Shown in pieces: positions 14,351 through 48,893 of a DNA stretch of 64,000 nt. Below the pieces are notes generated by a model, which was not told where the DNA came from, ran no database searches, and saw only the letters and a list, made by a program, of their open reading frames with translations. The stretch's first letter is position 1. Each line of letters begins with the position of its first letter. The position numbers and the translations under genes are program-made. The DNA is from Amphiscolops sp. MND2022 (lineage: Eukaryota), in NCBI GenBank assembly GCA_964187785.1, contig OZ076409.1:37326001-37390000 (forward strand), given 5' to 3'.

Positions 14351-14447
14351 ATGAAAACAATTCTCCGACAAAACATTATCCCATACTGGTTTTATACTCC
14401 CAGCATTTTTCTTTTTTCTTGCACACTCAATAATAATAAAGCAAGAC

Positions 14448-14724: not shown

Positions 14725-14827
14725 TTCCCCTCTCTGTTCTTTACGTTCGGTCAACAAATTTGAACATAAATAGTTGTGGCTCTTCTATTTGCTTCCGCTA
14801 GTTGTTAATTATTTCTACAGTGGTATT

Positions 14828-17795: not shown

Positions 17796-18077
17796 GTTAT
17801 AGAGTTAGGTTATCGTGAAAGGATAACTAATGTCTATTGTCGTATTCACTGTGAATCTTGTTTCAGGTCAAAAGACGGGAAGCAATACTCTATTCATATA
17901 CATATAAGACCGTATGGCAACTGAGCCAATGTTAGTGTTGGAACTCTATAGTTTTACTGGTACAGTATTTGTAAATAAGTATTGAAATAAATGTACAAAT
18001 TGGCTAAATGTTTAAGTCACTCATAAGTCTTTAATTAATTGTTTTTGAGTTTCTTCTTTTGACAGAGCCCTGTCACA
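17795..18077 (-). repeat. 5' LTR of element B (283 bp)
   Basis: TGTGACAGGG...ATAACA on the minus strand, followed by PBS-like TGTCGCTGCAAG; carries an extra CATATA relative to the 3' LTR. Confidence 0.93.
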
Positions 18078-18159
18078 AAGACAAACGAAATATAAACATA
18101 ACAAATTTCTCCTATGAGACGAAAACAAAAGAAACAAAGTTTACAGAAACAAGACTGCT

Positions 18160-21865: not shown

Positions 21866-22665
21866 CTGAAACAAGTTCAAATGCTTAAAGCGGAAGCGAA
21901 AGCAAAAGAATTACAGGAAGTAGCATTGAATTAACTTTGAAACCGGACGCGGTAAAAAATCACAAAGCTACTTCCGCCCCAAAAAATCAAAGTTTGACAG
22001 AACTATTTTCACACTAAACTAAACAAATCGACTAATGTAAATTAGTTACTTCATTTTGCAAGCCTGGCCAGCTCTGCATGATGATCCCACAACCAAAACA
22101 AATTCCACTATGAATTAAAACTTAAAACAAAAGTTGAACCAACCTGGAGAAGTCTCAGTAGGAGATTTGTACCCCCACGATCCTGGCACTCGTCTCGAAA
22201 TTCGATCCTTTTGCGATTTCCTCCGACTGGTTTCCCGGAATAAAAGGAAACCTACAAAACAAGATTAATGAACGACGATCCAAAGCAGGATAAGGAAAAC
22301 ACAATTTTAATGAGCGTTTAGAAAAAGTCTGGGATTGCAGAATCCAAGAGAAAATTGTTAAAGAAACTGACTATACTTTTTCCAAAAATAAGCTGAAAAG
22401 ACTGAGATTGAAGAATTGAAAGAAATGCGTAATTGCATGAAATTGGAAAGGCGTGGCGTACGAGTACAGGCAAAAGAGCAAAATGTGACAGATATCGTAC
22501 ACGGAAATAGTGTGGTTCTCAAATCTGATTGGTCAATTAAATGTCAATCACTTCGGCCAGAGTGAAAGATTACATATTTGACGTAAACGACTGACTCATC
22601 ACCCATTCTCATTACAAGCGAGAGTGAACGACAAGAGCACGTGGCTTCTATACAGTATTACAATT

Positions 22666-22825
22666 CGGCATTATGCGGAATTATGGGTTCCAGATACAGC
22701 TCTATGCGGCATTATGCAGAATTACGAGTACCGAGTATGCGGCATTATGCGGAATTACGAGTGCCGTGTATGCGGTATCATGCGGAATTACAAGATGTTG
22801 AGTATGCGATAATATGCGGAATTGT
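22666..22825 (+). repeat. Degenerate ~33-bp tandem repeat (TATGCGGCATTATGCGGAATTACGAG...), about 5 units, in the spacer between the divergent accessory genes of A
   Basis: Repeated units are directly visible. Confidence 0.85.
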
Positions 22826-23737
22826 ATATATCAGCGGACAGTGAAGACAGAAACAGTCAATGACGAGATTACGTAACAGAATTCATTCTTGCCGCCTTGG
22901 AGTCAAATAATACTACGTGGCAAGATGAGCAATACATGTGAATAATATAGACTCACTTTGCATATGATGGATGATTAAACAACCATTATTGGAAACATGG
23001 AAATACATCTAGACGTTTGTTATTGAAACCCAAACTTAGCACAGTATATGACCACCCGATGCTCAACAATAGTATATTTTGATCCCAGTATGGTATTGAT
23101 ATGTGAGATAAATCACAATTACATGCCCCTAACGCACTTTTTAAGTGCAGGACTAGTGATGCCATGAATACCTTAGATAGATAACCTTATGTTCGAACAC
23201 TTAGCTAGCAACTTTAAACTTTTCTTTTACAGAATTTCAATATGTTCTTTCAATCTAGTAATGTAAATTTGGATGAATTAACCCTGTTCAAAATGCCATG
23301 AATGAAAGTTGTATTGTGAACCTAATTCATCTTCCGAAAAAGGAAGGAAGTTGTTGACAAGCCATTTAAAATATCAATTCGATGAAGAGCAACAAGAGAG
23401 ATAATTTTACGAGATGAAACTGAGAGAAACACTTGAAATTGAATTGTTTAGACCTCATTGACGGAAGCAGATCAGTCTCATCTCTTTGAAATATCCGACC
23501 CCATCGCCCTAAACTCTATATAAGGATGGGAGGTGAGGCAAAAATCACAACCCCAAATCTTTTTCGCGGGAATCATCACAGTCAACTGGAGCAGATAAGA
23601 AAACCACCATAAGGTCTCATAGCAATTTCAGAAACAGTAACACATCTAAAGCACATCTCAATCTGCATCAAAATAGTTCCAAACGAGTAAAACTCATAAA
23701 TTCTACCCTTTTGATATCAGTTAATCTCACACAAATT

Positions 23738-24802
23738 ATGGATAATCTACAATTCAATATTGAGGAAGAATTAATGTTGCCATCGTTGTCCCCTGCAGTG
23801 ATCGACGTCTCAAGTGACTCAGGCGATGAATTCATTGTTCATCCGGGAGATCTGTCAGAAATAGAGGACAGATTCAGACCGGGTGGCCCTCGATCAGATG
23901 TCATGACTGGCTTCATGGGAGCGGCAACAGCTTCCCTGTTCCCCACCCAAACGAGAAGATCAGACGAAGACGAGATAATCGACATCTCTGGGACCCGAAT
24001 TGAGCGCCAATTAGTGGATTTAATGGAAGAAGACCAACACGATTACGAATCCCCACCAACCTCATTTATAGACACCGAACTAGAGGACTCTCCAATGTCT
24101 CCGTGGGAATCGCCCCACAGGGTTGAGGGTTCAACAAACAGTTATGGGAGGCCGACAGCCGCAATTTTACCAACTCCCCGTGACAATTCTCAAAGAAGTA
24201 TACCAGTGAACAGGCCTGCTGCGAACTACACACCAAATTTTGTGGCTAGCGCAAGTAACTTCCAAATAACACCGCTCAAAGTTTCTAACAATCATCAGCG
24301 AACGATCTACCCAAGCAACTACAACCAGCAAGAAATAATCATCACTGCCAATATGAACCCACCTATGGCTGAAAATATGGTGGTTTATAACAATGCTCCA
24401 CTGATGATACAAATACCCCCAATCGGAAGAAGAATGGACATTCCTCATCAAACCCTTGTTACGAATAATCAACAAGTGTTCAATTTCCCTTTCAATGTGG
24501 AACACAGTTCCAAGTTACTGCTGATCCCGACCAGTGAAAGACAGATGCCTAGATTGTTCCCAACCGTAATGCCACACGTTGCAGGCTTTTGCGATTGGTG
24601 TGGAAAATGCTATGATCAACTAGCATAGGAGAGTTTGGGCGAGTATCTAATAGCAACCGCCTACGACGCCGAGACAGTGAGAGACCGCGGGGTAAGATCC
24701 CGAGCATTCATTGATGGTTTTCAAGCTGCTCTCTTCTCGTTTAAAAGTGCAGGACTGTCACAACCCCACGCTTATGCTGGAGTTGTTGGGCAACAACCCT
24801 AA
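23738..24802 (+). CDS. Sense accessory ORF of element A (acidic, SIM-like motifs, CxxC); one in-frame TAG at 24626, otherwise open into the 3' LTR
   Basis: ORF 23711-24628; the frame stays open for 57 more codons (ESLGEYL...AGLSQPHAYAGVVGQQP*) and stops at 24800-24802 inside the LTR; TATA-like CTATATAAG at ~23516. Confidence 0.7.
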
Positions 24803-26201
24803 ACGAGAACAGTTAGGCATCTTCAAAAGAAGGAACAAACAGCTTGATGACCTGAAACTTTATACACTTCAAACTTTCCCTTCTTTTGTTTTATGTTGCT
24901 TCGACTTTCACTTCGCAATTTGGAATTGCCATGTAAAATTCTTAGATTTTTTAATTTAACGGTTACAGCTTAACAAGTGCCTAAACAATGATGTTTTCAC
25001 TTTCTGTTGACATGAATGACTTTATTTAGTCACAAACTTTCAATTTAGAATGGTTTAATACTATTTCTGAGGTAATGTTGTGAACAGATTGTCATTGACA
25101 CATTACTGTGGAAGTTTAATGTTGATAAGTATACGTCACCATGCAGTAATCCGAGTGACGTATATGCGTCATCCTGTGGATTTGCGCTTATAACATGTAT
25201 TTTTGGTGCTTTTAATGAGAGTTGATTATGCGTCACTATGCGGAAAACTGGATGACGTATGTGCGGCATCCTACAATCTTCCAGGGGCTCGTTGCTTTCG
25301 TATAGTTAGATAATTGGAAGTCATGCAATCACCATTTGTAAGTTATAAATAGAATTACGTCACTCTGACGTTAGTTTATTCATAGCATTTTTGAATTACT
25401 GACAACCCTAAAATTGAGTGTCATGCTTTATGATTTTTTCATTTGTAAAAGTGCAGTTTACTTCAGATGAAATATAACTGGTACCAGAGACAGTTGCTTC
25501 ATAACAGTAAACCCAAAAACTGTAAAAGCAGTTTCCTTGATAACTCTTTGTTTCACCGGGATTGTTTTCACAACATTGACGAATAAATTCAAAGTCTTTC
25601 TGCACTTTAACCCAATTTTCCTCTCGAGCAAGATGGGAAATAGAAGAAATCGAAGGTCCAGAAGGTTAGAAACTCCGTCCCCGGAGAGAGAAACAAGCGA
25701 AGTACGCATAGAAACTCCAAGTCAAGGTAATGAAACTTTAACTAATGTTAAATTACAAAGTCAAGAAAGTTTAGGTGAAACTGATTTGAGACCCAGATTA
25801 GTTGAACCCAGCCAAATCAGCAATGAAATTCAAGCTTGGACCGAGATTTTCGAACAGAAAAACAATGATAGAATCACTAAAATGAGAGAAGAAATGGAGA
25901 ACAAATTAGAGGCGATTCTGATGGAGATAAAAAGTAGTAAGAGCACATCTATGACAACTAATCCTAGATCTGAGATGAACGAAATAGAAAATATGCAACC
26001 ATCGGGATCCGGGGGTAAAAGGTCTATGGGAGTAAACGCATCTGATAATGAAAATATAGACTCTGAAAACGAAGATATCCCCCCTCAAAGCCTCAGAATT
26101 GAGAGATTTAAGGCATCCCGCTAAACCCATACACCAAAATGATACAACATTAGATGCAACAATTATCTTTAACGAAGAATCTGATGAGGAGGATTATCAC
26201 A
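24756..26201 (+). repeat. 3' LTR of element A (1446 bp), carrying a copy of the Gag N-terminal ORF
   Basis: Direct repeat of 6871-8309, followed by TSD GTACC. Confidence 0.96.
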
Positions 26202-29934: not shown

Positions 29935-32146
29935 TGTCACGACCCGCTCCCGGTCGTGGGTGTGAATGGTGTTTTGCACTTGGTCGTGGAAGAGGTCGCG
30001 GCTACTGCAAGTATCATTAAACTAAACTGCTTAAAACTAATGTAATTCTACTTACAGTACAGCTAAAACCACTTGTAGATAATCTCCCAAAACAAAGTCT
30101 AACGTAAGCGTTACAGAAGATTTTCAGAAATGACTCTAAACTAGCTAAAACTTCCGATCTAATGTTTTCACACGCAACACCGTTTTATTTCCGGTTTTGT
30201 CTTCTGAGTTTTCCATTCCAATCTAAATACTAAATAATTTTGCAGACGGGATCATTTTGGCGCTCCACACTAAGATGAAAACACAGAAACAACGTTTAAC
30301 TCTGAGATCTCAACGGAGTCCATAAGATCTAAAATGAAAGAGCATACAAAAACAGAGCGGAAATGTATTCCAATATTAAAATAGTTGTTAAATATCTACT
30401 TAAAATCGCAGTCAAGTGATTTTAAGTATATGTTTAGAACGTTATGACAGCGTCACTCAACTAGGCTAGTAACGGGTGTTTCTATTTTTACGGACCAATA
30501 GCGTCGCTTGCCACCGGAATTATATGAGCTCGTACCAATAGAATTACGCTTGGTTGCCCCTAGCAACGCTTACTAGCTAAGAAAAGAGAATAGAATCGCC
30601 TACGCTCTCCGTTTTCACTCCGCTTGCTACTGCTGCTCAGCTATAAGCAATCTTAATACGTACGTAGCATCTACGGAGCAGATTGTAGAATTGTATTCCG
30701 CTCTTCAGCTATAAGCAATCTTAATACATACGGAGCATTTACGGAGCAACTTAAGAAATTGTAACTAAGAAATACTGCAATGAATGAATTCTTTGAAAGA
30801 TTTTTTCTGAATCGATGCACCTTAAAAAATCTTAAGATTAAGTTTACATAAAGAATAGTTGTACTGTGAGATAGGATTATAAAGTGAACGTAACACTCGC
30901 GTTGCTTTGAAGTTTGTATAAGTTTTGATATGATGCAGTAATACTCATTCCAGTAATCTCTCCTATTTCTTTTCTATTCTTGCCCAAACCTCCCCCGGGT
31001 GCTATGATGTTGTATTTTTATACGTCTTCTTAGACCTTTGAGTCTGAATACTTTGTGTGCTAACTGCTAAACAAGTTTTGGCAAACGGACCATTTCCGTG
31101 GCATTTAGTTGATGCTAAAAATCAAATGTTTTGTCTTGTGTTCCAATGCATGTAAAGTTCGTAATAATTTGCCATTCTCTAGGCAATTCGTTTCTGAAAG
31201 GCTTCTCAGCATCACTTTGTTCTTCATTTTGATCTCCCAAGTGTTTCTGGCTCTAAAATATTTACATCCATCATAATTCCGTCGCTATTTTTGAGTGTCA
31301 TTCTTTTACTCCGAATTTCAACTTTCAAGTTAGGAAGCTGACTAATTGATCACGCCGTCGTGCCTGCGTCGATGAAAATGAAAGCTAGACATTTGTTTTG
31401 CCGCAATTTTGAAGCTTAAACAGGAAATGGATCGCCTGAACGAAAATGATTTCACCAAAATTTTACGGAACACTGACGCAACTAGTAATTTTGATACCTG
31501 ATTTTATGACGCGGGACTGAAATAATATGAATCATTAGCGCATTTTGTTGAACAAAACCGATTTTTGTGATACCTAGGAATTTTAGGTGAGGAACAAATG
31601 ATGCTGGAAAGGTATAAATATGTAAAACATACATGTAAATCAGTTAGTTTTTTGACCTGCTTTGTAACAACTAGTTCTGTTCCGTTTTCATAACGTGTTC
31701 AAAAGAAAACTTAAATATTTGAAGAATTCAACTTTTCCAAAGATACTATCTCTCTCTCTCGATCGAAATGACAACTAGAAGCCAGAAAGGGAAAGCTGTA
31801 GCCGAGTTAGTCTCCGGTGATTTCGAAACCTCTGTAACCGAAAACTTTCCACCTGAAACCCTTGTAGCTAGTTCTAGCAAGATTCCTAGGATAGAACCAG
31901 AGGGTTTGGCTGAGATAAAAACGTCTCTAAGGAAAGATATTATGTCTGATCTAACTAGAATACTTGCAGAAAACCAAAAAGAAATGCTTAAACTGATAGC
32001 ACCTTTAAACAAGAAACAAACTGTTCACACGAACGTCCAAGACTCAGACTCCGAACCAGAGAATCTTTCCGTAGCAAGGACGTCTACCCCCATCAATACT
32101 CATAATGCGACTAGCTCTAAAACAATACCGGTAAATAGTCGTAACA
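29935..32146 (+). mobile_element. Solo LTR (2212 bp) of a subfamily of element C
   Basis: TGTCACGACCCGCTCCCGGTCG...AATAGTCGTAACA; near-identical to the C LTRs in the middle; flanks GGAAA and AGGAA are not a clean TSD. Confidence 0.9.
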
Positions 32147-32292
32147 AGGAATATTTACCAGTCAAATTGAGGGCAAAGTTGAACAGGCGAGCGAGCCCAA
32201 GCTATAGTCTTGAAGTCCCGGTCTTCTCATATACTTTTGAAGATCCGGCGCCTTAGGCAAAAATTTTGAAATCCTGGACTTCTCATATCAAC

Positions 32293-34507
32293 TGTCACGA
32301 CCCGCTCCCGGTCGTATTTTTACTTGCTGCTCTGGAATACCAGGACTCGGCAGAGGACATGGACAAGGGCAGAGTAAACATTTTTAAACTTTGTTAAACT
32401 AATCAAAATTCTACTTACAGTACAGTTAAATAAGTGCGAATAATTTTCCAAATACGGAATTCAACGTAAGCGGTACGGAGGATTTTCAGAAATGACTCTA
32501 AACTAGCTAAAACTTCCGATCTAATGTTTTCACACGCAACACCGTTTCATTTCCGGTTTTGTCTTCTGAGTTTTCCATTTCAATCTACATACTAAATAAT
32601 TTTGCAAACGGGATCATTTTGGCGCTCCACACTAAGATGAAAACACAGAAACAACGTTTAACTCCGAGATCTCAACGGAGTCCATAAGATCTAAAATGAA
32701 AGAGCATACAAAAACAGAGCGGAAATGTATTCCAATATTAAAATAGCTGTTAAATATCTACTTAAAATCGCAGTCAAGTGATTTTAAGTATATGTTTAGA
32801 ACGTTATGACAGCGTCACTCAACTAGGCTAGTAACGGGTGTTTCTATTTTTACGGACCAATAGCGTCGCTTGCCACCGGAATTATATGAGCTCGTACCAA
32901 TAGAATTACGCTTGGTTGCCCCTAGCAACGCTTACTAGCTAAGAAAAGAGAATAGAATCGCCTACGCTCTCCGTTTTCACTCCGCTTGCTACTGCTGCTC
33001 AGCTATAAGCAATCTTAATACGTACGTAGCATCTACGGAGCAGATTGTAAAATTGTATTCCGCTCTTCAGCTATAAGCAATCTTAATACATACGGAGCAT
33101 TTACGGAGCAACTTAAGAAATTGCAACTAAGAAATACTGCAATGAATGAATTCCTTGAAAGATCTTTTCTGAATCGGTGCACCTTAAAAAGTCTTAAGAT
33201 TAAGTTTACATAAAGAATAGTTGTACTGTGAGATTATAAAGTGGATTATAAAGTGAACGTAACACTCGCGTTACTTTGAAGTTTGTATAAGTTTTGATAC
33301 GATGCAGTAATAATCATTCCAGTAATCTCTCCTATTTCTTTTCTATTCTTGCCCAATCCTCCCCCGGATGCTATGATGTTGTATTTTTATATGTCTTCTT
33401 AGACCTTTGAGTCTGAATACCTTGTGTGCTAACTGCTAAACAAGTTTTGGCAAACGAACCATTTCCGTGGCATTTAGTTGATGCTAAAAATCAAATGTTT
33501 TGTCTTGTGTTCCAATGCATGTAAAGTTCGTAATAATTTGCCATTCTATAGGCAATTCGTTTCTGAAAGGCTTCTCAGCATCACTTTGTTCTTCATTTTG
33601 AACCTCCAAGTGTTTCTGGCTCTAAAATATTTACATCCGTCATAATTCCGTCGCTATTTTTGAGTGTCATTCTTTTACTCCGAATTTCAACTTTCAAGTT
33701 AAGAAGCTGACTAATTGATCACGCCTGCGTCGATGAAAATGAAAGCTAGACATTTGTTTTGCCGCAATTTTGAAGCTTAAACAGGAAATGGATCGCCTGA
33801 ACGAAAATGATTTCAACAAAATTTTACGGAACACTGACGCAACTAGGAATTTTGATACCTGATTTTATGACGCGGGACTGAAATAATATGAATCATTAGC
33901 GCTTTTTGTTGAACAAAACCGATTTTTGTGATACCTAGGAATTTTTAGGTGAGGAACAAATGATGCTGGGAAGGTATAAATATGTAAAACATACATGTAA
34001 ATCAGTTAGTTTTTTGACCTACTTTGTAACAACTAGTTCTGTTCCGTTTTCATAACGTGTTCAAAAGAAAACTTAAATCTTTGAAGAATTCAACTTTTCC
34101 AAAGATACAATCTCTCTCTCTCTCTAAAATGACTACTAGAAGCCAGAAGAGGAAAGCCGTAGCTGAGTTAGTGTCAGGAGATTTTGAAGCTTCTTTAGCT
34201 GAGAACAATTCTACTGAAAACCTAATAGCTAGTTCCAGTAAAAACCCTAGACTTGAGCTCGAAAACTTGGAGGAGATAAAGACAACTCTGAGAAAAGAGA
34301 TCATGTCTGATTTAACGAAAATACTCGCTGAAAATCAAAAGGAAATGTTCAAACTAATAGCACCTTTGAACAAGAAACAAACTGTCCACTTGAATGTTCA
34401 AGACTCTGACTCTGAACCTGAGAATGTTTCCGTAACAAGGACGTCTACCCCCGTCAAAACTCATACTGCGACTAACTCTAAAACAACACCGGTAAATAGT
34501 CGTAACA
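32293..34507 (+). repeat. 5' LTR of element C (2215 bp)
   Basis: TG...CA direct repeat; TATA-like GGTATAAATA at ~33973. Confidence 0.96.
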
Positions 34508-35406
34508 TGGTGACAGGAGTCCTCAATGACTCTACCAACCAACCCACGAAAAGATCAAAACAACAACGCGCATCCAACGAGCAAACAAAAGACCGTCCTT
34601 CAACATCTAAAATACTGTTCGCGCCACAACCGCAAACATTTCCAGCTACCAACCTACTTCCGATGCCGAAAGCACTGCTTCGCTTCCAGTCTTCGATGGT
34701 AAGTCCGAAAAGTTTGAACTTTTTGAGGACCTATTCCGAAATAATATCAAAATGTACCCTCACCTAACTGAGATACAAAAGATCAACTACTTCCATTCAC
34801 TCCTACGAGGAAACGTGAATTTTGACCCCACTAAACAGAAACTCCATGAGTCCTTGACGCCCTGCAAAAACAGCAAAAGAAGCATTCGGTTCAGAAGCAC
34901 AAAGTTTCATTGATAAAGCAATCTACGCCAAAATGCCGGATCACGTCAAGAAGATCCTCAACAGAGCGTATTTGGCAGATAAACCCTACAATGACATAGT
35001 GTTGCATCTTGAGAGGGAAATGAGGTTAAACGGACTAGGTGCGCCCGACGAAACAACCCTAGTCCCACTCAACACAGTGGACGCCGTAGTGACGGACAAT
35101 AAAAAAGACCAACAACAACGAGGCCATTGCTTTCACTGTGGCAAATATGGCCACTATAAAGCACAGTGTCGCATACTCCAACGTGAGCGTTACAATATCG
35201 CCAAAACAACCACAAAAGACCCAGCCCAAAACGAAGCACCCAAACCCAAGTGTGATACATGTGGCAAGATGCACAAAACTGAGAACTGCTGGAACGGAGC
35301 CAATGCGGCAAATGACCCCAGAAAGAAGAAACGAGAATTCACCATTCCAACCAACAAAATCAGCGAACAACCTGTACCCACACTGTCCTCCCAGCCAAAA
35401 AACTGA
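34129..35406 (+). pseudogene. gag: Gag of element C, starting inside the LTR; internal deletions; two Zn knuckles
   Basis: MTTRSQKRK... through RNMVTGVLN; AKMPDHVKKILNRAYL (compare A AKMPPHLKKSINQAYL); CFHCGKYGHYKAQC, CDTCGKMHKTENC. Confidence 0.9.
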
Positions 35407-38400
35407 AATCGCCGCGCCTACGATTTGGGAAAAAGTAGACGCGAGGGCGTGCACGATAGAGGACCCCCAAACAGGTATGAGGAAGATTTTTTACCCGAAT
35501 GTAATGAAGAACCAACTCAAGACTGGCAACGCCGTTCGAACGTAGGCATGATACTCAGGCATAACGCCAGACACCCAGACGATCCAACGCCACTACCCCA
35601 GTGGATAACAGAGTCACCCGATAACTATGCGACACTCAAAAGACCGTTGCCGGAATCAAAAACAGACCGAATTTATATATATGACAGAGACTACAGATGT
35701 GACCCTTGGGATGAACCAACTATCTATGACACAAATAAACTGTCCTTCAAAATCCAAGTCTCAAACCCTCAGGCTCAATCTACGGGGATTACAAACCTAC
35801 CATCACCACCGTCACCGATCCTGAAAAGAACAACACCATCCCCAACAGTACCCGTCACCATCACGTCCACACCAATAGACGCAGAGAACATCATCTGCAT
35901 TGAAGATAAAACAATATGGGCACAACAGGAAAGAAGAAAACGAGAGAATGCCGACCCCCAGTAACCCCTCCAAAAACCGCGCCCGTCACGGCACTGACGC
36001 ATGACGACGTAGAAATCACGGAATGTCCCTCAAAACTGCCCGAAGATCTAGATGCCATCAAAGAATTCATCCAACATGACAAAGACGACGACTTCATTCC
36101 GTTAATGTCTGCCATCGCTCTCAAGAAGACAAAACGAATGCTTTTTCTACCAGTTGAATTCAACACAGTCAAAATCGACGCTCTAGTCGACTCAGGTGCG
36201 TACATTAACGCTATTAGTGAAAGGGACGCTGAAAAACTCCGACAGCACGCTACCCCCACCCCCTTTCAAAGTGCAGTATGCCAATGCTGAATTAGAACAA
36301 CAACCACTTGCCACGTACACCCTACGTTTCAAAATAGGGGATTACACCTTTGAAGAAACATTCATCATCATGAATCAAACGTCTTTCCCCATAATCGGAT
36401 TAGCGTTCCTACGTAAACACGCCGCAATCCTCGACACGGCGCAAGGAACCATCGACTTCCCTAAAATCCAAATCACGATGGCGCTCACAGATGAAAGACA
36501 AAAATGCAATCCCAAGCCCATCACAATAAAGACCGAAGCCAAGCATACAATTCCAGCACACGCTACCCGAATCATCTACGCAACAATCCCTGTGAGTATT
36601 GAACACTCAATAACTGGCACAATACAACCTTTACCACAAATTGACGAATGCGCGAAGGTAATAGTGGCCCCAGCAATTACCACAGCCAGAGACAAAAAGG
36701 TACCAATTAAAATCGCCAATACCACGGATTTCCCATACACAATAGCTACTGACACCAAAATAGCCGAACTACAGATCCTAAAACCCGAAGAAACGAAGAT
36801 GATCCGTCCAGTCGACATAGCCGCCCTCAATCTCCTCACTGACCATGACGATGTGGTCACGTACATCAATGCACTAATGCAAGTAGAACGGCCCGAAGAC
36901 AATGAAGAGAAATTCTGGTTTCCGACTCCAGAACACCCAGGCAACGAACAAGAACATTCACCCATACAAAAGCGAATCTTGAAAGAACTGCGAGACCTTG
37001 CCGGACTAGAAAAACTTGACCCAATCGAAAACAAAGAGTCTCGCAACAAATTCTTATCCATGTTTAAATGGACCGATTCACTGATTGCGGGCAAAGACCG
37101 TGAAAACCTCGAGGACACCATCGTAGAATTCAACGACATCTTCGCCCGACACCGGCTAGACATCGGGATGAACACACAATTCAAAGTCAGCCTAACACCA
37201 CAAGACGACAAACCAGTCTACACACAAAGCCTACCCGTTCCCATTAACCTCAAAGAAGACCTAACTGTGGAACTGGCCCTCATGCACCGATACGGTATCA
37301 TCACGACACTCCCCTTCTCCAAGTATGCCAGTCCTATATTTGCACAACGGAAACCCAACGGCAAGCTGAGACTGCTGGTGGATCTGCGCAAAATCAACGC
37401 ACTCATAGCAGATGACTACATCAACAACAACCACCCTGTCAGCACCCTCTCAGATGCGGCACAACACCTAGCAGGGAAAAAACTATTTTGCAAGCTCGAC
37501 TGCTCCCAGGCGTACCACTGCCTCCAAATTGCAGATCAAAGGTCAGTAGAATTACTTGCTTTCAATTTTGCTAGTAGGACGTTCGCCTACCGTCGCCTGG
37601 CACAAGGACTAAGCAGAGCTCTATCAGCTTTTTCGAGCTTTATGCGTGAGTATCTGGATTCTGTCATCAAAGCAGACCAATGCGCACAATACGTAGATGA
37701 CATTGGCATCGCTGCAAATACAACGGAACAGCTCATAAAGAACATCAGAGCAGTCTTCAAATGCATTAAAAAGGCAGGACTAAAACTAACCATCGAAAAA
37801 TGTCACTTTCGAGTAACACAAATCGAATTTCTTGGCCGAACCATCACCCCTGACGGAGTAGCCCCGCAAGATCAAAAAGTCAAAAATTTCCTCTCCAAAG
37901 TCCGCTTCCCCAAATCCAAAAAACAAGTTCAAAAATACATTGGCTTTGTTAACTATTGCCGCAATTACACCGCGCTTGTCAGCAAAACTCATCGGCATGT
38001 ACGAACTTCTCAAAGCAGACTCCAAGATCAGAATTTCAGAAGAACTTGTCGATAACTTTAAGGAAATTAACGCCAGTTTAGCGGAAGCTTGTGGACTTGC
38101 ACTCCGACAGCCCATAACAGGCAAACAGTACGTCCTAATGACGGATGCAAGCTTTCGTGCATCAGGCTACGCCCTCATGATTGAGGAGAACGACGAACGC
38201 AAAATACTCTCCAAACGAAAAACCTTCGCACCAGTAGCGTTCGGATAACGAGTTTTTTCACCTGCACAACTGAAAATGTCCATCTACTGCAAGGAATTCT
38301 TAGCAATCTACCATGCCTTCCTTGAACACAGCCACATACTATGGAAAACAACAATCCCAACGCTGGTCTTAACAGACAACCGCTCAGTAACTAGATTCTT

Positions 38401-40669
38401 CCAGACAAAAACGACACCCCCTGCACTCTTGAATGCCTGTGACTATGTATTACAATTCAAGTTCCGAATTATGCACGTAGCAGGCTCCCAAAACACAGCA
38501 GCAGATTTTCTCTCAAGACTTGAACTTACACCGAAAGAAAAGGTACAACTTAAACTACGAGACGACATTCTAACGTCCCCAATTGAAGTTAACCTACAAT
38601 CATCAGATGTAGCTGACGAGGAACAACTTTTCTTCCTACCAGACGAAGAAGATGAATCTGAACAAGAAATCTTTGTCCGAAAAGCACTCAGCAAGCGACG
38701 TGCCCTAGACGAACATGAGAGAGAACTATCAACAAATGTAACCGAAGTCATCAAGATACCACTCAACTCCGCAGTCTACTCCTTCGGTGCAATTAAGGAA
38801 AATGCACGAATCAGAAACGAGCAAGATGCAGACCCTCTCCTGAAAGCACTGAAACAACGGATCTCACACGAAGAATATGACAAACACTTTCTCAAAACTG
38901 AACCACGAGGACGAAACCTATTACGCCACGAAGAAAGAATCATAATGAAAGACGGAGTTCTGATGCGAAAATACTACGGAGAAGATAGATCAGTCATCCA
39001 TAACCAAATTATAATTCCAAAACACCTAGTTCCAGAACTCTTGTCCACTCTACATGGAAAAACAAATAAACACCCAAGAATCACCAAAATGATACAAGAA
39101 TGCAGAGCGAAATACTACTTCCCGGGTCTTGCACGCAAAATCAGAGCTTGGGTAACCAGTTGTCAGGATTGCATTGCCAATAAAAGAATCGACACGAGAC
39201 AGATACGTCCCAAAATGCTAAGCAACACTGAATTCGCAATGGGACCAGAAGACTGCCTAGAAGTAGACATCCTACCAAATCTACCTTCCTCAAATGGATA
39301 TCAACTTATCATAACGATGATGGATGTTTTTTCGCGTTACCTTTTCGCTTACCCGACTCAGGATATGACAGCAAAAACAGTCGCACGATGCATAATAGAC
39401 GTCATGACACGACACTGCTATCTACCGACCGTCATTCTAACGGATAAAGGATCACAATTCAGGTCAGAAGTAGTCAACCAAATAGAACAAACACTGGATA
39501 TACGGATAAGCCACGCATCGACGAAACACGCCCAAACAATTGGCATCCTAGAAAGGACTCATGCCTCTTTGAAAACCTCCCTAAAGATATCAACGGGAGA
39601 ACGACGCTCTACGTGGCACAAATACGTCCAGATTGCAGTCATGAATTACAATACAAGCTACCATGAAAGCCTAGGCCGCGAACCTACAACAGTGTTTCAC
39701 GGACGCATTCCGTACAACATTTTGGATATAAAACTTGGATTGAAACCTAACTGGGAAAAAGATAGCAAAAAAGAACTAACGGATCAATTACAGAAACAAA
39801 TAGCCGAAATACACCACGCTGCCAAAGAGAACCTAATGCAGTCTTACCTCAAATACAAACAGTACTATGACAAGAAAGCAACGGCTACCCCGCTCAAAGT
39901 CAACGACTACTGCTACGTCCTTAATCCGAAGGCAGACAACCAGTCGATGAAATTCGCCTTTAAAGATTGCATTTGGACTGGACCCTACATAGTAGTCAAA
40001 GTACTCTCGAACAACAACTACGTCGTACGTCGCACAGGAACAAGGTATACTCAAACCCTCCATAGAATTCGCCTAAGGCTATATGCGCCCAATCAGCGAG
40101 TACCTGACGTAACAGTCAGAAAGGAAGATTACCTTCCAGACCCAGAGGTTAAAACAACCCACAATGATTGGTACGCGCAAGCTTGGGAAACCGAATTCGG
40201 AGAAGTTCTGTTCGGAAACACTACGGAAAACGCCACCAAAGAAGCTACAGTTACAGAAGTCGCAGACACAACAAGAAACGACGAAATTACAACGGAAAAT
40301 GATGTGGTTAAAACAACCACCAAAAAAAGTATAGTGGAAAATGACGTGGTTAAAACAACCACAGACGAAGCTACAACGGAAAATGACGTGGCTCAAACAG
40401 CCACAAATGAAAACGCTGAAGGAGATAAAACACCCTCCGACAACGTTACGTCATTTGACCTAGATGTCAGCGATAACCCATATATTTTGACCCCACCACC
40501 GATACAAAGCCCTCCCAAAACACCCGAATTGCCGCCTATCGTCGTTGGATATAATCCTAGAAAAGTGGGAAGATACAACTTACGACCTAACTCGAGACCT
40601 AACGTAAATCCTGACTTCAGTATGCTTGACTCAGCTACTACGGGAGACTCATGTTCAACTCAAAACTAA
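35400..40669 (+). pseudogene. pol: Pol of element C (PR, dUTPase-like spacer, RT, RNase H, integrase), frameshifted
   Basis: LVDSGA; QYVDDI; MTDAS...YCKEF...LTDN; HGKTNKHP...CQDC; EVDIL/TDKGSQF/LERTH; GPY; RYNLRPN. Confidence 0.96.
40288..40410 (+). repeat. In-frame tandem repeat (~48 bp x3, TTENDVVKTTT-like) in the integrase C-terminal tail of C
   Basis: GGAAAATGA(T/C)GTGG appears three times. Confidence 0.75.
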
Positions 40670-40921
40670 ATGAAAAGAATCACAATGTCAAACTGAACCA
40701 GAATGACTACGTTAATTCTTTGCCAAATTCATCTACCTACAAATAACAATGACAAAACAGCGAACTAAAAATAAAAGATGACCAGAATCCATCAAAAAAT
40801 TCATAAATCACAAATCATCTCTTGGAAGATTTACCAAGTTTATGAAATATCTCAGGATCTGGATCAACAACGTTTTTCGACTTCACGGATTTCTTTGACG
40901 TACTAGCACCGTCCTTCCACT

Positions 40922-43900
40922 TTACAACAATGCCTCTCCTTTGGATTTGTCTTTCTTAGACGCGACGACAGCTACGTTGCCTCTCTCTGCAGACTTTCCA
41001 CAGGCAGCTCTTGATGATCCTGACTTCGCACTCCCAGTCTCACTACCAGCTCCTCTTGTACTTTGATCCAAACGAACCAGCCGATTAATTTTGTTGCATT
41101 CAATATAGTGACTCTCGTATTCTTTTCGTCGCTGGAGCACCAATTTAGGACACACATTTCGTTGAACAGACACAAATGAAGAGTACGTAGCACCAACGAA
41201 ATCCCTCCACAAATTGATTTCACCACAAACGAAGAAAACACCAGCTTCACCGACAGCAGCACGAACGGCCTCCATTTTCTGACCGGTGAAAAAGGCCTGA
41301 TGACTATAGCCTCCACTCAGAACGTAAGATTGTATCAACTTGATACAATTCTGCATTGCGCTCTCCACCAAAGAACTACCGCTGAGACTAATAAAGACAG
41401 ACGGATAGGATACGTCTAAAGTCCTAACCGCCAAACAGCACAACTTGAAAACTCGCAACAAGTGTATATGTGACTGGAAACTAAAGTCCTGCATCAAATA
41501 CTCAATAACATCCACAATAGAATTGGCAGATTGCTCAGAACTTCGATGCTGACCCCGCTTCTCGATCACATAACTCATCTACTGAACGGCTCGACTCCTC
41601 TGCAGTTATCAAACCACACGTCTTCAATAGCCGACATAGATCCGCAAACAAAGCAAACTTTCCGCTATCATCCCCTTCAAAGAGAATCTCGGGACAGAAG
41701 CTGTAGAAACAACGTGATACCCCCGAAGTGACAGTAATGCTCCCAACTATTACGACAATCAGGCGATCGATGAACTGCTGACACCGCATACGGAATTCTG
41801 GAAGTCCGCCCACCTTCTTCGTCAAGGTCCTACCAAAATCGTCATTAAGTAGAAAGGCATCCGAAGCGACTACGGGAAAAGCAGACACTGCCTCCACGGA
41901 CATGTATTTTTCCCACTCGTGGATCCCGGGGAGACTCCCAACAATTCGAGTCTTCATCAGTAGACAGTAGACAAAGTTGCACAATTCCCCAAACGCGTGA
42001 AAGCTGTAATCTCTACGGCACTGCTGCAACTTCGTGGAGTTGTTATGAACTGAAACATAGGTGACATCATGTAAATCACACAACCCAACGCCCACCACGG
42101 AACACAAATGAAACGGTTATGTCACGGACACAAATAATAACAATCTGATCAGTTAAAAACAGTTAGAAACAGTCCAGCACAGTCATTGCAGATACCCACG
42201 GAATGCAAACGAACACAAAGCTACCCCACTAACATGTATCAAGCATCATCAATAGGAGACCAAACCGATGTAAGAGCATATCATCTGCAATGATATTCCA
42301 ATCTGTGCCTTTCAACTAAAACAAACACGGATCATCTCCCAAAACTCCCATACTACAAAAAGAGGAAAAACAACAAAACAACTCCACTTACAGTATCAAC
42401 AGTGTCTTTCGCTTGAGGCAACCCAGTACAGCGTATGTACGGCTTTATGGATGGCCATAGCTCCATCAGATCAGCGACCAGTCTCCGTAAAGCTGAGAAA
42501 ACCACCGCACCTTTCAGAATACAGCGCCGCAAAACCACCTTGTCCTCAGTCCACTCCTCGTACAAAGCACTTTTCTTACGACGAACAATGTATTCTACAA
42601 GCGTCACCAGTTCCACCATGCCGAACACATCCTGATGTGCCTGTCGGAAACACTGCAGAAACACATCACCATCAAAGGGCTCGTTGACGATGAATTGACG
42701 GGAATCACGGCGGACTTCGCTGAAAACCCGTAACAGCAACGGACTACAATTTCGGATGGAGACAGGCCATGGAGCATCCTCCACACTGCAAATCACTTTA
42801 GCAATAGGGAGCAGATCAGCATCGGGAAAGTCTTGGTCCACAGGCTGACTGTCCACACAAATTTTCTTCAGACACTCCTCCTCCCAGTACACGACATAGC
42901 AGTACTCCATGCAATTGTCCCTCGAGAACTCAACGCTATACTCCCGAGATAGAGCAAGATGGCCCAGTACCACGCGGAGCACCCGAGGAGCAAGTCCCTG
43001 ACACAGAAATGCCTGAAACGAACAACCGTCAGAACAACTACAACACGATTGCCCGAAGTAACACCAAAAAGAAAAAAAGGAAAAAAAAACTTTTTACAAC
43101 TTTGCAAAAGACCCAAAAGCAGACACAGCAACCACGAAAGTCATACGGACATACTAACCACTGTTTCTGAACGACTCCAATTCACGGTAAACTGTGGCTC
43201 TCGGGTACCCAACGAAGCAGTGAAATGCCCCCACAAGTGCCGCAATAGGAAGAAGTCTCCCCCCCTACGTAACAGTTCACATACACATGATACCAGGGTC
43301 ATCAGAGGCACTTTTGAACCTGGATGTGCGTGTTTGGACACCAAGTCTTCGGGGTGAGGAAATTCTCCGCCCAGATCTTCAAACGGACGGGCTCGGTATT
43401 CGGCCAACTGAGTCTCTGTCAGGGTCATTGGTTCTAGCAGCTTGTTGTACACAGGCATGTCCATATGCACCCTGTACGTCACATCCCGTCGCCAATGCCC
43501 AACTGATCCAAAATGTCGAATTATTTCTGACACCCCATGAGTACAGATGGTGACATCCCGCTTGCAGATACGACAGAAGAAGCGCTCATCCGACCCACTT
43601 TTTGCACCAGTCACGAAATCTTTAAATGACTCGTGAGCAGAGAGCATCCGTCGATTAGGAAGATTACGTTTGCTGTACTTTCGTTTCTTGGGACTCAGAC
43701 GCTCTTTCACCTTCTCAGACAAATCGCGAAACCCTACAACAGAGACGTAAATCATCGACCACGGAACAACTACACATAATCACAATCATAATAGATGAAT
43801 CATGATATCAAACCAATACAGCTACTCGCATCCGGATAACATACGTTCAAAGCATAACACTTTACAAACTTACCGCTTTGAATAACCACGGATGTCCGCG

Positions 43901-44850
43901 TTTCCACCTCGCTCACCAATCGACGACCCAACTCCATCCAATCCTGAGGACTGAATGCTGTGCCTCCGACATCTTCTTGACCTATAAACAAAGTGCCGTA
44001 GAATCTACAAGACTAAAATACAAACCCCAAGACCCCATTACGAATGAACGATAGAAACCAACTTACTCAACCATCCGCCCAAATCACCAAACATAGGGGT
44101 AGTCACGGAAAAATCTTCCACTCGTTTTGATCGCTTGGGAGGAGTAACAAAGCTAACGGATGATTTCCGTACCGCGCCAGATCTCTCCCCTAAAACAACA
44201 CATACCAAACTGCAAACCAACTATGGTCAAACAAACGACGAAACAGGCCATCAATAGATGCTCAGCACAATGCTAACTTTTTTTCTCAGGGGACGTAATA
44301 GTCCCACCTCCATGGGACTCACTGCTATCACTATCATCATCGACATTCGAATCAGATTCCCCCACGGATTCTCCAACCCCTTCTTTAGAGGAGCTCGTCT
44401 TACCCACGGAACAATGGGTATCCAAAGAAGGAAGAATCTCAGTATTCGGCTGACCAAGAGTAGACGTCAGAACGTCGTTAACGGCAGTGCTTGTAATAAC
44501 AGGCAAGATGGTAGAAACTGCAGGCAACACCGCCCCAGAACAAGAAGTCACCCCAGCAGTAGTCACAGAAACAGTAACAGCAGACGTTGTATCAGGTTGA
44601 GCTACTGAAAATCAAGATCTGGATTCAGACGCGTCAGAGTTACGGGTAAGACTATAAAAGGCTGATCACCAAAATAACAATAGTCCCATTACCCATGGAA
44701 GTCAGAAAGATTTTACCAACCTGAAGTGACTCGGGCAAACTCTATGTCTGACACAATCAATTCACCGTCAGAATGGCCATAGACAGTCTCATTCCCACTG
44801 ACGAAGCCTGTGACCGCAGCAGCGGGAGGAACACATTCATCATTCTCCAT
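40922..44850 (-). CDS. Antisense 8-exon accessory gene of element C (~1030 codons): acidic/low-complexity N-terminus, BED-like Zn finger, hAT-transposase-like body. Exons 44850-44721, 44604-44278, 44189-44067, 43981-43874, 43733-43159, 43012-42392, 42315-42234, 42049-40922; one frameshift near 41580
   Basis: All seven introns are GT-AG with compatible phases (1,1,1,1,0,0,1). Motifs FFCRICKRDVTICTHGVSEIIRHFGSVGH, WSRSETVAFLCQGLAP, LMELWPSIKPY, HLLRVFKLCCL. Confidence 0.82.
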
Positions 44851-44879
44851 AGTTGGAAATTGAAATCTTCAACACGATC

Positions 44880-45440
44880 TAAAAAGAAAAAGAAGATCAA
44901 GGAAATTACGTTACGCGAATGTAACAATTGAAAGAAAATCATCAACGTCATCTCTACGTAATTGAAAAATCATCTAATCTTCAACTTCAGTGAAAGCTTA
45001 TCATGGCATTGAAAGGAACTAAACGTTTCCAAATGTACTACAGATGAATAAAAGATTCATCAAGAAGCTCTGAAGAAAAGATGTCATTTTGAAAATTACG
45101 AAATATGAACGTAGAATATTCGAGAAGAAATCAATGACGTCATGACGTCATTGCCCGAGAAAGAAACGGAACGTAAAATTAGAAACTTTTCCTATAAGTT
45201 TCAGCCAATCACAGCGTAGTAGGAAAGAGTTCTCTTTTCTTAAATCGGGATGCACCGGAACGAAAACGGAAAAGCCAACCAATAGAATATCGATGAAAAA
45301 TACGAAGAGAAGGAAATTGGAACGGTCATTTGTCGTCCAAATCTTCAGCTTGACCAGCTCTACGCATAAAAATTTCAAATCTGTCTCAGTTTTTCCGCAA
45401 CCCAGAACCTGGAAATTGTCGCAAAAGCTCTCCGGTGAAC
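44880..45440. promoter_or_regulatory. Putative bidirectional promoter between the antisense gene and the sense accessory ORF of C
   Basis: Head-to-head start codons at 44850 (-) and 45444 (+); double CRE-like palindrome TGACGTCATGACGTCA (~45135-45150), two CCAAT boxes, TATA-like CATAAAAA. Confidence 0.5.
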
Positions 45441-45443
45441 AAA

Positions 45444-46285
45444 ATGAACAGCTACTCTTTAGTCATCGACATATCTTCTGATGAAGAAAACGCAAAAACG
45501 AGCACACCACTGAAAACGCTACCGCTCAACATGATTGGCTCACTGCGTGATTCATCAATCGAAGTCTATCGTGGAAGCGATGCGGAAATGGTTTCCATTT
45601 CCGGGTCACCCGTAACGGCACCGACGCCTAATAAGAAAAGGAAAACAGGAAGAGTCACGTTCAATCTGCAGACAGCCGACTCTGACACGGACTACAATGA
45701 AGAGCCAGATTCCCCGCAACGCCTACCTTCCCCAATAAAACGTACTCCTGTTCTAAAGGAGACGGAAAATATCCCTGTACTGGGAAATGACAGAATGCCA
45801 AACTCGGGAAAATTAAACCACTTGAATGAGCCTTCCTTGGCGGAATTGGAAGCTATGTACGGCCTGGACTTAGAGGACCGAATTTACCTCGCATCCTTAG
45901 GCCGTGGACGCGCGCGACACGCAACAAACATAAATCTGCCGAGCTCGAAAGAAAATCTGCGTCCTAACATCATAATTAGACCCCCCGAATGCTGTCCGGA
46001 GGAAGTAGAACGACTAGAGAAAGAAGTCCGCGAATTAGACGAAGAAGAAAAGAAAATGAGGGACATGAAGGCGGGAAGAGAACGTGGCCCCCTTCAATCA
46101 AGAAGATACAATGGTCGCCCCCCGTGACAATAAAGAAAGAAATCCCGCACTGCCACGCTTTACCCCTGTCACTCTCATCAAGAGGGGCCCTGTCACGACC
46201 CGCTCCCGGTCGTAATTTTACTTGCTGCTCTGGAATACCAGGATTCGGCAGAGGACATGGACAAGGGCAGAGTAAATACATTTAA
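45444..46285 (+). CDS. Sense accessory ORF of element C (SIM-like VIDISSDEE, basic NLS-like KKRK, coiled coil); probable frameshift in the C-run at ~46120; ends in the 3' LTR
   Basis: ORFs 45435-46127 and 45989-46285; the latter enters the LTR as L-S-R-P in the same frame as the A ORF (L-S-Q-P). Confidence 0.65.
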
Positions 46286-48413
46286 ACTTTGTTAAACTAA
46301 TCAAAATTCTATTTACAGTACAGTTAAATAAGTGCGAATAATTTTCCAAATACGGAATTCAACGTAAGCGGTACGGAGGATTTTCAGAAATGACTTTAAA
46401 CTAGCTAAAACTTCCGGTCTAATGTATTCACACGCAACACCGTTTTATTTCCGGTTTTATCTTCTGAGTTTTCCATTCCAAGCTAAATACTAAATAATTT
46501 TGCAAACGGGATCATTTTGGCGCTCCACACCAAAATGAAAACACAGAAACAACGTTTAACTCCGAGATCCCAACGGAGTCCATAAGATCTAAAATGAAAG
46601 AGCATACAAAAACAGAGCGGAAATGTATTCCAATATTAAAATAGTTGTTAAATATCCACTTAAAATCGCAGTCAAGTGATTTTAAGTAAATGTTTACAAC
46701 GTTATGACAGCGTCACTCAACTAGGCTAGTAACGGGTGTTTCTATTTTTACGGACCAATAGCGTCGCTTGCCACCGGAATTATATGAGCTCGTACCAATA
46801 GAATTACGCTTGGTTGCCCCTAGCAACGCTTACTAGCTAAGAAAAGAGAATAGAATCGCCTACGCTCTCCGTTTTCACTCCGCTTGCTACTGCTGCTCAG
46901 CTATAAGCAATCTTAATACGTACGTAGCATCTACGGAGCAGATTGTAAAATTGTATTCCGCTCTTCAGCTATAAGCAATCTTAATACATACGGAGCATTT
47001 ACGGAGCAACTTAAGAAATTGCAACTAAGAAATACTGCAATGAATGAATTCCTTGAAAGATCTTTTCTGAATCGGTGCACCTTAAAAAGTCTTAAGATTA
47101 AGTTTACATAAAGAATAGTTGTACTGTGAGATTATAAAGTGGATTATAAAGTGAACGTAACACTCGCGTTACTTTGAAGTTTGTATAAGTTTTGATACGA
47201 TGCAGTAATAATCATTCCAGTAATCTCTCCTATTTCTTTTCTATTCTTGCCCAATCCTCCCCCGGATGCTATGATGTTGTATTTTTATATGTCTTCTTAG
47301 ACCTTTGAGTCTGAATACCTTGTGTGCTAACTGCTAAACAAGTTTTGGCAAACGAACCAATTCCGTGGCATTTAGTTGATGCTAAAAATCAAATGTTTTG
47401 TCTTGTGTTCCAATGCATGTAAAGTTCGTAATAATTTGCCATTCTATAGGCAATTCGTTCCTGAAAGGCTTCTCAGCATCACTTTGTTCTTCATTTTGAT
47501 CTCCCAAGTGTTTCTGGCTCTAAAATATTTACATCCATCATAATTCCCTCGCTATTTTTGAGTGTCATTCTTTTACTCCGAATTTCAACTTTCAAGTTAC
47601 GAAGCTGACTAATTGATCACGCCGTCGTGCCTGCGTCGATGAAAATGAAAGCTAGACATTTGTTTTGCCGCAATTTTGAAGCTTAAACAGGAAATGGATC
47701 GCCTGAACGAAAATGATTTCAACAAAATTTTACGGAACACTGACGCAACTAGGAATTTTGATACCTGATTTTATGACGCGGGACTGAAATAATATGAATC
47801 ATTAGCGCTTTTTGTTGAACAAAACCGATTTTTGTGATACCTAGGAATTTTTAGGTGAGGAACAAATGATGCTGGGAAGGTATAAATATGTAAAACATAC
47901 ATGTAAATCAGTTAGTTTTTTGACCTGCTTTGTAACAACTAGTTCTGTTCCGTTATCATAACGTGTTCAAAAGAAAACTTAAATCTTTGAAGAATTCAAC
48001 TTTTCCAAAGATACAATCTCTCTCTCTCTCTAAAATGACTACTAGAAGCCAGAAGAGGAAAGCCGTAGCTGAGTTAGTGTCAGGAGATTTTGAAGCTTCT
48101 TTAGCTGAGAACAATTCTACTGAAAACCTAATAGCTAGTTACAGTAAAAACCCTAGACTTGAGCTCGAAAACTTGGAGGAGATAAAGACAACTCTGAGAA
48201 AAGAGATCATGTCTGATTTAACGAAAATACTTGCTGAAAATCAAAAGGAAATGTTCAAACTAATAGCACCTTTGAACAAGAAACAAACTGTCCACTTGAA
48301 TGTTCAAGACTCTGACTCTGAACCTGAGAATGTTTCCGTAACAAGGACGTCTACCCCCGTCAAAACTCATACTGCGACTAACTCTAAAACAACACCGGTA
48401 AATAGTCGTAACA
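46191..48413 (+). repeat. 3' LTR of element C (2223 bp), carrying a copy of the Gag N-terminal ORF
   Basis: Direct repeat of 32293-34507, followed by TSD TCAAC. Confidence 0.96.
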
Positions 48414-48893
48414 TCAACTAAGACTTTTTCTCACTTTCGAACTAATGTTTTCTTATAGTTACGTTTTCAAATTCGATCGTGCGATCTAGTCATAACTATC
48501 TGTCAATCATGACTACTTTCTTCATGAACATTTCTTTGTCGATGAAAACTCAGGGGACGTACAAGTGAACAATTTTTTGTTTACTCGACTTACACAACTT
48601 TAATGGGTTCTGTGATTGCCACTAACTTGCACTCTTTGCACTCTTTGTGAGGTCCCCTCTTTGGGTAAAAACTGCTTTGGGTAGTAAGATCTAAACTAGC
48701 CCTAGCGCTACTGAATACAGCCAAAATCACTGAAAAAACATGAAAACAGGCACGAAAATGGCAAACCACACAGCTAAAAGCTGAGGCGCAGGGGCTCCAA
48801 GCACCAAACAAGGATCTTTAGGCGAAAAGACTCATTTTTACGGTTTCCGCTACATAGGGTAGCATAATGCTGAAAATCGAGAAAACCGGTGTC

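Follow-up and report, generated by a model that had tools for sequence, protein, structure and literature searches.

An eight-exon antisense gene paired with a divergent sense reading frame in a Ty3/gypsy retrotransposon of Amphiscolops sp.

The 64,000-nucleotide stretch of the Amphiscolops sp. MND2022 genome analysed here (assembly GCA_964187785.1, contig OZ076409.1, positions 37,326,001 to 37,390,000; hereafter the window) contains a Ty3/gypsy long terminal repeat (LTR) retrotransposon. Between pol and the 3' LTR, this element carries an eight-exon gene on its minus strand and, diverging from it, a sense open reading frame (ORF) that we call orfX. The two are likely to form an integral accessory-gene cassette of this Ty3/gypsy lineage and not a recent passenger. 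An earlier note, made from the letters of the window alone, had described the antisense gene as a hAT DNA transposase domesticated by the retrotransposon. Our analysis bears out that the gene exists and belongs to the element as an integral part, and a non-catalytic product is plausible; the hAT origin is unproven.

When spliced by script, the eight exons reproduced the coordinates and lengths reported earlier (Table 1). All seven introns run from GT to AG with compatible phases, and the donor sequence is GT(A/T)AGT in five of them. Every peptide that the earlier note had quoted is present in the spliced product. The earlier description of the gene structure thus holds in every detail. The joined frame is open for 826 codons, after which the window copy is broken. 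The frameshift that had been placed near 41580 is an 8-nt gap just after 41576, private to the window when compared with 16 other aligned copies. A second window-private gap, of 1 nt near 40932, moves the stop forward, and unbroken copies extend to ~40815.

In the whole assembly (1.07 Gb, 1929 contigs), the 3.9-kb region has 17 full-length copies that are 84-97% identical, besides many others at ~70%. The eight-exon structure is present in all 17 close copies and in three subfamilies that are ~70% identical. Across the close copies, 237 of 238 splice dinucleotides are GT or AG, far more than chance would give. These copies are mostly frameshifted, with an unbroken spliced frame (1070 codons) in one of the 17. 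All 17 distant loci that were fetched have the order pol on the plus strand, exons on the minus strand and orfX on the plus strand, with the exons appearing as separate tblastn matches. Twelve of the 17 were aligned; L022, L030, L031, L032 and L034 were dropped as fragmented by tblastn. The spliced frame is unbroken in six of the 12 and interrupted by a single stop in two more, and unbroken frames measure ~1030-1070 codons. Exon lengths are stable across loci (130, 327, 123, 108, 554-570, 621-623, 79-82 and 1139-1145 bp for exons 1 to 8 of the distant copies, with 506 bp for exon 5 in L035), while intron lengths vary between subfamilies. Four apparent TG acceptors at exon 3 in one subfamily are a 3-nt alignment offset beside CAG.

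The earlier note had proposed a family-wide comparison of nonsynonymous and synonymous substitution (dN/dS), and its outcome agrees with a protein-coding gene. By the Nei-Gojobori method, dN/dS is 0.111-0.127 between subfamilies (16 of 16 pairs) and 0.81-1.53 within them (five pairs), hence 0.11-0.13 against ~1; between-subfamily dS is 0.93-1.94, near saturation, so that the ratios are approximate. Exons 5, 6 and 8 are the tightest (0.03-0.10 where dS could be estimated), exon 5 being the most constrained (0.06-0.08), and exons 2 and 3 are loose (0.28-0.79). Differences between subfamilies at codon positions 1, 2 and 3 number 219, 154 and 509 over 1030 codons. Identity is 0.70-0.79 in exons versus 0.58-0.71 in introns, and indel columns amount to 3-21 of ~3100 in exons versus 113-209 of ~870 in introns. 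The spliced frame is thus under purifying selection between subfamilies and undergoes neutral decay inside each of them, as expected for a gene on which the transposing lineage depends and which decays once a copy has been inserted.

The same figures bear on the view that the unit acts mainly as RNA. On this view its antisense transcript would anneal to the genomic RNA and supply small-RNA silencing, and the frame would be incidental. Some retrotransposons, such as micropia, do have non-coding antisense transcripts (mentioned in the available part of PMC7264820). However, the antisense exons of the present element do not overlap gag-pol, third-position changes dominate, frames of ~1030 codons are open in diverged copies and indels avoid the exons. 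None of this would be expected of a non-coding RNA, and we consider this explanation hardly credible.

The association between gene and element extends beyond the family. A second gypsy element in the window, older than the first (LTRs 95.4% identical), is 57% identical to it in reverse transcriptase (RT) and 48% identical in integrase (IN). It nevertheless has the same layout of pol, an antisense gene on the opposite strand and a sense orfX-like frame. Its distant homologue of the antisense gene comprises an exon-8-like ORF (18186-19316), an exon-6-like ORF (19964-20491) and a zinc-finger ORF (20770-21495). Base composition is a further link between gene and element. At synonymous sites the antisense gene is rich in T (34%) and G (29%), complementing the A (38%) and C (31%) of pol, and the plus-strand excess of A and C is strongest in the introns. 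Because its synonymous composition mirrors that of pol, the antisense gene has long been exposed to the strand-specific mutation bias of the element.

These observations have to be weighed against recent transduction, in which a single family would have acquired a host gene or a nested DNA transposon and merely carried it along. Capture of genes by LTR retrotransposons is documented in plants (PMC7264820, as far as its available text goes), and one result of our own genome search speaks for transduction and against an integral cassette. With a query across the junction of the pol end and the antisense end (39900-41500), 15 of 40 scored matches span both parts; the other 25, at 91-93% identity, all end 50-75 nt past the pol stop, a breakpoint at the level of the family, and at the DNA level they do not extend into the cassette. 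Since the fetched subfamilies are only ~73% identical there, the 25 short matches represent a different, closer group. Against transduction, the cassette occurs in three subfamilies whose synonymous sites are saturated and between which selection is purifying, it occurs again in the second element despite an IN that is only 48% identical, and its composition has converged on the strand bias of its carrier. Terminal inverted repeats (TIRs) were not found. The earlier note had itself named family copies without the region, with the gene as a secondary TIR-bounded insertion, as a finding that would overturn it; all 17 close copies contain the region, and no convincing TIRs flank it. Given the spread over subfamilies, the second element and the convergence in composition, recent capture is very unlikely.

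Homologous sequences in databases show that the exon structure is also old. In a library of 1.84 billion proteins, exon 8 has 420 relatives at E<=1e-3 and 228 at E<=1e-10, and the best 150 of them are all exon-sized (<=443 aa). Exon 6 found 31 relatives and exon 5 found 49. Ten exon-8 relative clusters that were looked up are all ENA ORF calls without protein names, and a query with exon 8 for longer proteins gave no match. Database ORFs at 47-60% identity lose alignability exactly at the borders of exons 5 and 6: beyond the WSRSETV segment that ends exon 5 the relatives continue V-S (equivalent to GTnAGT), and F-Q (equivalent to TTTCAG) precedes exon 6. Since similarity ends at the exon borders in relatives this diverged, the intron positions are old. 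In one relative, P0208, exon 6 leads straight into the central part of exon 8 within one ORF; this is apparently a deletion derivative of the antisense gene from another copy or genome. Within the genome, a protein search with exon 8 gave 7388 first-look candidates, 108 of which were scored; dozens of these are 46-51% identical and have open frames of 394-450 aa. Scans of metagenome and viral contigs found no relative.

The element itself is a complete Ty3/gypsy LTR retrotransposon spanning window positions 32293-48413. It has RT, RNase H and IN in this order, a CCHC gag, LTRs with TG...CA ends and a 5-bp target-site duplication (TSD). The pol region matches Pfam RVT_1 (E 9.6e-24), Integrase_H2C2 (2.9e-13), rve (1e-11) and RT_RNaseH (8e-6), and the two LTRs are 98.2% identical over 2225 aligned bases. 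Because LTRs and TSD bound the element with the minus-strand gene inside, between pol and the 3' LTR, the intron-bearing gene was inserted together with the whole unit. Introns that are antisense to the genomic RNA are not spliced from that RNA and hence survive reverse transcription. The gag frame opens ~480 bases inside the 2.2-kb LTR (34030-34507, corresponding to 47936-48413 in the 3' LTR). A related solo LTR lies directly upstream of the element (29935-32146), and, with the gag frame beginning inside the LTR, each LTR including this solo copy holds a copy of the gag N-terminus. On the plus strand, the internal region (34508-46190) consists of 32-36% A, 27-28% C, 18% G and 19-21% T, a bias that is not present in the LTRs or flanks and that peaks in the introns of the antisense gene.

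Table 1 Features of the two gypsy elements and of the antisense gene (window coordinates; + and - denote the strand).
Feature	Position	Strand	Remarks
Second gypsy element in window	6870-26201		LTRs 6870-8309 and 24755-26201
Distant antisense-gene homologue in second element	18186-21495	-	tblastn E 8.5e-10 and 4e-7; local alignments
orfX-like ORF of second element	23537-24628	+	N-terminal VID(I/V)SSD motif in common with orfX
Left TSD, TCAAC	32288-32292		identical 5 bases repeated at 48414-48418
5' LTR	32293-34507	+	TG...CA ends; contains start of gag frame near 34030
gag region with CCHC knuckle	34030-36290	+	several frames, from ORF list; zf-CCHC E 0.008 (weak)
Putative primer-binding site TGGTGACAGG	34508-34520	+	begins with TGG and adjoins 5' LTR; assignment inferred
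pol (RT, RNase H, IN)	36187-40669	+	two ORFs plus a shifted piece in the window copy
Exon 8	40922-42049	-	1128 bp; predicted all-helical domain, long helix, basic tail
Exon 7	42234-42315	-	82 bp
Exon 6	42392-43012	-	621 bp; predicted RNase H-like core at ~42572-42943, then helices with invariant A-H pair
Exon 5	43159-43733	-	575 bp; PKKRK, CxxC..H..H finger (~43495-43581), WSRSETV at end
Exon 4	43874-43981	-	108 bp
Exon 3	44067-44189	-	123 bp; least constrained, dN/dS 0.28-0.79
Exon 2	44278-44604	-	327 bp; Ser/Thr/acidic low complexity; weak constraint, dN/dS 0.36-0.47
Exon 1	44721-44850	-	130 bp; ATG at 44850
Tandem TGACGTCA TGACGTCA, CRE-type palindromes	45135-45150		candidate core of a bidirectional promoter
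orfX	45444-46127	+	second accessory ORF; truncated here, frameshifted near 46110
Purine run AAGAGGGG	46180-46187	+	polypurine-tract-like (inferred); CCC (3 bases) separates it from 3' LTR
3' LTR	46191-48413	+	TG...CA ends read directly
Right TSD, TCAAC	48414-48418		follows 3' LTR

The second member of the cassette, orfX, evolves fast, with 33-59% identity between subfamilies, and its longer versions run into the 3' LTR (to ~46285). It has a conserved N-terminal VID(I/V)SSD(E), which we take to resemble a SUMO-interaction motif, a KKKK patch and an EEPD(S/T)P motif. A further conserved stretch, ...SRPAPGR..., may reflect constraint on the LTR end rather than protein function, because in the longer versions the 3' LTR supplies the coding sequence for the C-terminus of orfX with its first bases. 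The start codons of the antisense gene (44850) and orfX (45444) diverge over an interval of 590 bp (44851-45443). The tandem TGACGTCA sites lie in the middle of this interval, with the antisense ATG 292 nt away on one side and the orfX ATG ~300 nt away on the other, and ATTGG boxes are near them. Of 29 copies from three subfamilies, 26 have at least one full TGACGTCA site at a distance of 200-310 nt upstream of exon 1; the second element has none. The conservation of these motifs suggests that the 590-bp interval is a candidate internal bidirectional promoter.

The two genes of the cassette do not always share the same history. In the copies L007-L010, the antisense gene is ~94% identical to that of the window and orfX is only 47-50% identical (compared with window 45354-46127). 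Their orfX is of the type found in the 70% subfamily. This suggests that recombination between subfamilies occurred at the cassette and exchanged orfX.

In the protein encoded by the antisense gene, ~230 loosely constrained Ser/Thr/acidic residues are followed by a PKKRK patch that resembles a nuclear localization signal, a zinc finger and the segment ending in WSRSETV. The unbroken copy and the alignments indicate that the protein then continues through exon 6, the short exon 7 and exon 8. The finger has the form C-x2-C-x16-H-x5-H, and C53, C56, H73 and H79 hardly vary across 38 sequences; the WSRSETV segment is nearly invariant as well. For the fold of the exon-5/6 part we used P0219, an ORF that reads through intron 5 and comprises the end of exon 5, 33 intron-coded residues and exon 6 (alignment of 34 rows). 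Mean pLDDT of this model is only 54.8, with residues 105-170 and 215-270 at 60-89. It predicts an order of beta-beta-beta-alpha-beta-alpha followed by helices. The three-strand stretch that the earlier note had proposed coincides precisely with a predicted beta-meander of this low-confidence model. An RNase H lead for exon 6 in the ESM Atlas (0.76-0.77; all ESM Atlas leads are below 0.9) agrees with the predicted fold, and we favour, with some reserve, an RNase H-like fold for the exon-5/6 domain.

Exon 8 is better defined (alignment of 70 rows, mean pLDDT 76). Its model is all-helical from residue 10 to 210 at pLDDT 88-98, after which a helix of 45 residues and a disordered basic tail are predicted. 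Among the matches listed by the fold searches, none was found for this domain in the PDB or BFVD. An ESM Atlas lead to SLF2-like proteins (CANIN/FAM178, 0.82-0.83) was rejected, with no Pfam support and no such protein among the listed fold matches. Pfam returned nothing for the antisense ORFs of the window or for 18 distant relatives, and sequence-profile searches of the PDB with alignments of exons 8, 6 and 5 gave only chance-level rows. Comparison with the integrase of the element itself by hhalign gave probabilities below 1%.

The order of zinc finger, predicted RNase H-like core and long helical region is like that of hAT proteins (Hermes, ZBED-type). On such an order the earlier note had based its reading of the gene as a captured hAT (Class II) transposase that kept a BED-like finger, an RNase H-like core, an insertion domain and a C-terminal helix and lost catalysis. 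The best Foldseek match of the exon-5/6 model in the PDB is indeed the Hermes transposase (8edg_A; E 0.037, probability 0.47, non-significant), and five further Hermes entries are listed down to rank 22. However, no Foldseek match reaches E 0.001, the superposition with Hermes has an rmsd of 14 Å, and a wide fold search with the same model lists only helical hairpins and no transposase. Hermes chains are likewise absent from the matches listed for the helical domain of exon 8.

Unlike hAT proteins, the antisense protein has no detectable sequence or profile similarity to this superfamily, no recognisable DDE triad, no dimerisation match and no TIRs. The structure and profile checks that the earlier note had suggested thus yielded the non-significant Hermes match and, from Pfam, PDB profiles and hhalign, nothing. 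Even below threshold, Pfam BED and hAT families match none of 70 exon-8, 29 exon-6 and 38 exon-5 members. The 38 exon-5 sequences include no zf-BED match, and their weak finger matches go to U1/matrin-type C2H2 families. None of the three exon profiles has a match among PDB sequences. A genuine hAT transposase of the same genome (650 aa, with BED finger, hAT dimerisation domain and DxW, CxxH, TRW and ERxW motifs) gave hhalign probabilities of 0.2%, 0.1% and 0.2% with the three exon profiles. The hAT dimerisation family PF05699 matches none of the 70 exon-8 relatives at E<=10, although its HMM matches at least 150 loci elsewhere in the genome. No invariant acidic residue was found on the first strand or after the fourth, in a register taken from the low-confidence model. 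The invariant columns of exon 6 are S90, L93, A125, H126 and F130, and its Cys-His spacing is C-x4-H, not CxxH. Around the gene there are no hAT-type TIRs or 8-bp TSD, only chance-level imperfect inverted repeats inside coding sequence. Taken with the Hermes match, these results make an origin from a hAT transposase unlikely. A DDE-transposase ancestor is possible and unproven. We are similarly doubtful of a composite scenario with hAT-like DDE ancestry, a catalytically dead product, a bidirectional CRE promoter and a large amplified clade, in which a Class II DNA-binding scaffold would have been kept through long evolutionary time for nuclear steps such as target choice or transcriptional control.

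For the preferred reading, an accessory-gene cassette integral to the lineage, we propose the following mechanism. An internal promoter, TATA-less and independent of that in the LTR, would drive the antisense gene and orfX in divergent directions; its centre would be the tandem TGACGTCA sites, with CCAAT boxes in their vicinity. The spliced mRNA would encode a nuclear protein of ~1070 aa. This would consist of a disordered, acidic, Ser/Thr-rich region, PKKRK, one zinc finger and a probable RNase H-like domain without a recognisable DDE triad, followed by the confidently predicted all-helical domain, the long helix and a Lys/Ser-rich tail. It may be a non-catalytic nucleic-acid-binding factor, trans-acting within the nucleus, that affects how the element is transcribed, how its RNA is handled or how its cDNA is integrated. 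We propose this trans-acting nuclear role on the model of HBZ in HTLV-1, brtn in Boty and the antisense ORFs (aORFs) of plant elements.

In plant gypsy elements, antisense ORFs between pol and the 3' LTR have been described for Grande (gene23), RIRE2, Retand and the Tat lineages with PMD or Transposase_28 domains (PMC7264820, PMC4408406, PMC11963269). According to the available portions of these papers, aORFs are present in most copies of a family, are presumed to have a promoter of their own and encode nuclear or nucleic-acid-binding products. The gene described here has this position and orientation too and is likewise widespread in its family. It differs from the plant aORFs in its seven introns, the word intron being absent from the accessible text of PMC7264820 and PMC11963269, and in being paired with a divergent sense ORF. 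In 137 member sequences, no PMD, Transposase_28 or brtn/DUF3716-like Pfam match was found at E<=10.

In fungi, brtn is an antisense gene of Boty-like gypsy elements from Botrytis (Zhao et al. 2011, as cited in the available part of PMC8365987). Like brtn, the present gene is an addition to a Ty3/gypsy element and runs antisense to it. In contrast to brtn, it occurs in very many copies in a genome of 1.07 Gb, and its product of ~1070 aa has a C2H2-type finger and an RNase H-like plus a large helical domain, both predicted.

HBZ of HTLV-1, like the related antisense genes of deltaretroviruses, is a spliced minus-strand gene with its own promoter that encodes a nuclear regulator; HBZ begins within the 3' LTR, contains a single intron and specifies a small bZIP protein. 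Both genes are protein-coding and located on the minus strand of a retroelement. Unlike HBZ, the present gene has an internal promoter candidate, seven introns and an unrelated sequence. Antisense genes of HTLV are also mentioned in the parts of PMC7264820 and PMC11963269 available to us. Rotifer LTR elements have varied extra ORFs, for which the accessible text of PMC5408684 states no antisense orientation. Our literature search, which was not exhaustive, found no multi-exon antisense gene of an animal LTR retrotransposon. The position and logic of the antisense gene are known already from other elements. What sets the present gene apart is a new protein family, a far greater size and number of introns, and its pairing in a two-gene cassette.

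Antisense extra genes were so far known from plants and one fungal element, and the present case is much larger and more elaborate. It illustrates how an intron-rich, probably independently regulated gene can persist in a retroelement through reverse transcription. With thousands of candidate copies in one genome, the family offers many diverged, intact natural versions for the study of such proteins. Should a transposase ancestry prove true, protein machinery of a DNA transposon would have passed to a retrotransposon, an event that has rarely been documented. For annotation, caution is needed, as these exons will be called as host genes.

Within the second gypsy element of the window, a small nested LTR element on the minus strand occupies 14544-18077. 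It has gag-PR-RT ORFs of its own, and its short direct repeats are located at 14544-14724 and 17897-18077. Just upstream of the 5' LTR of the second element, 200 N (6292-6491) mark an assembly gap.

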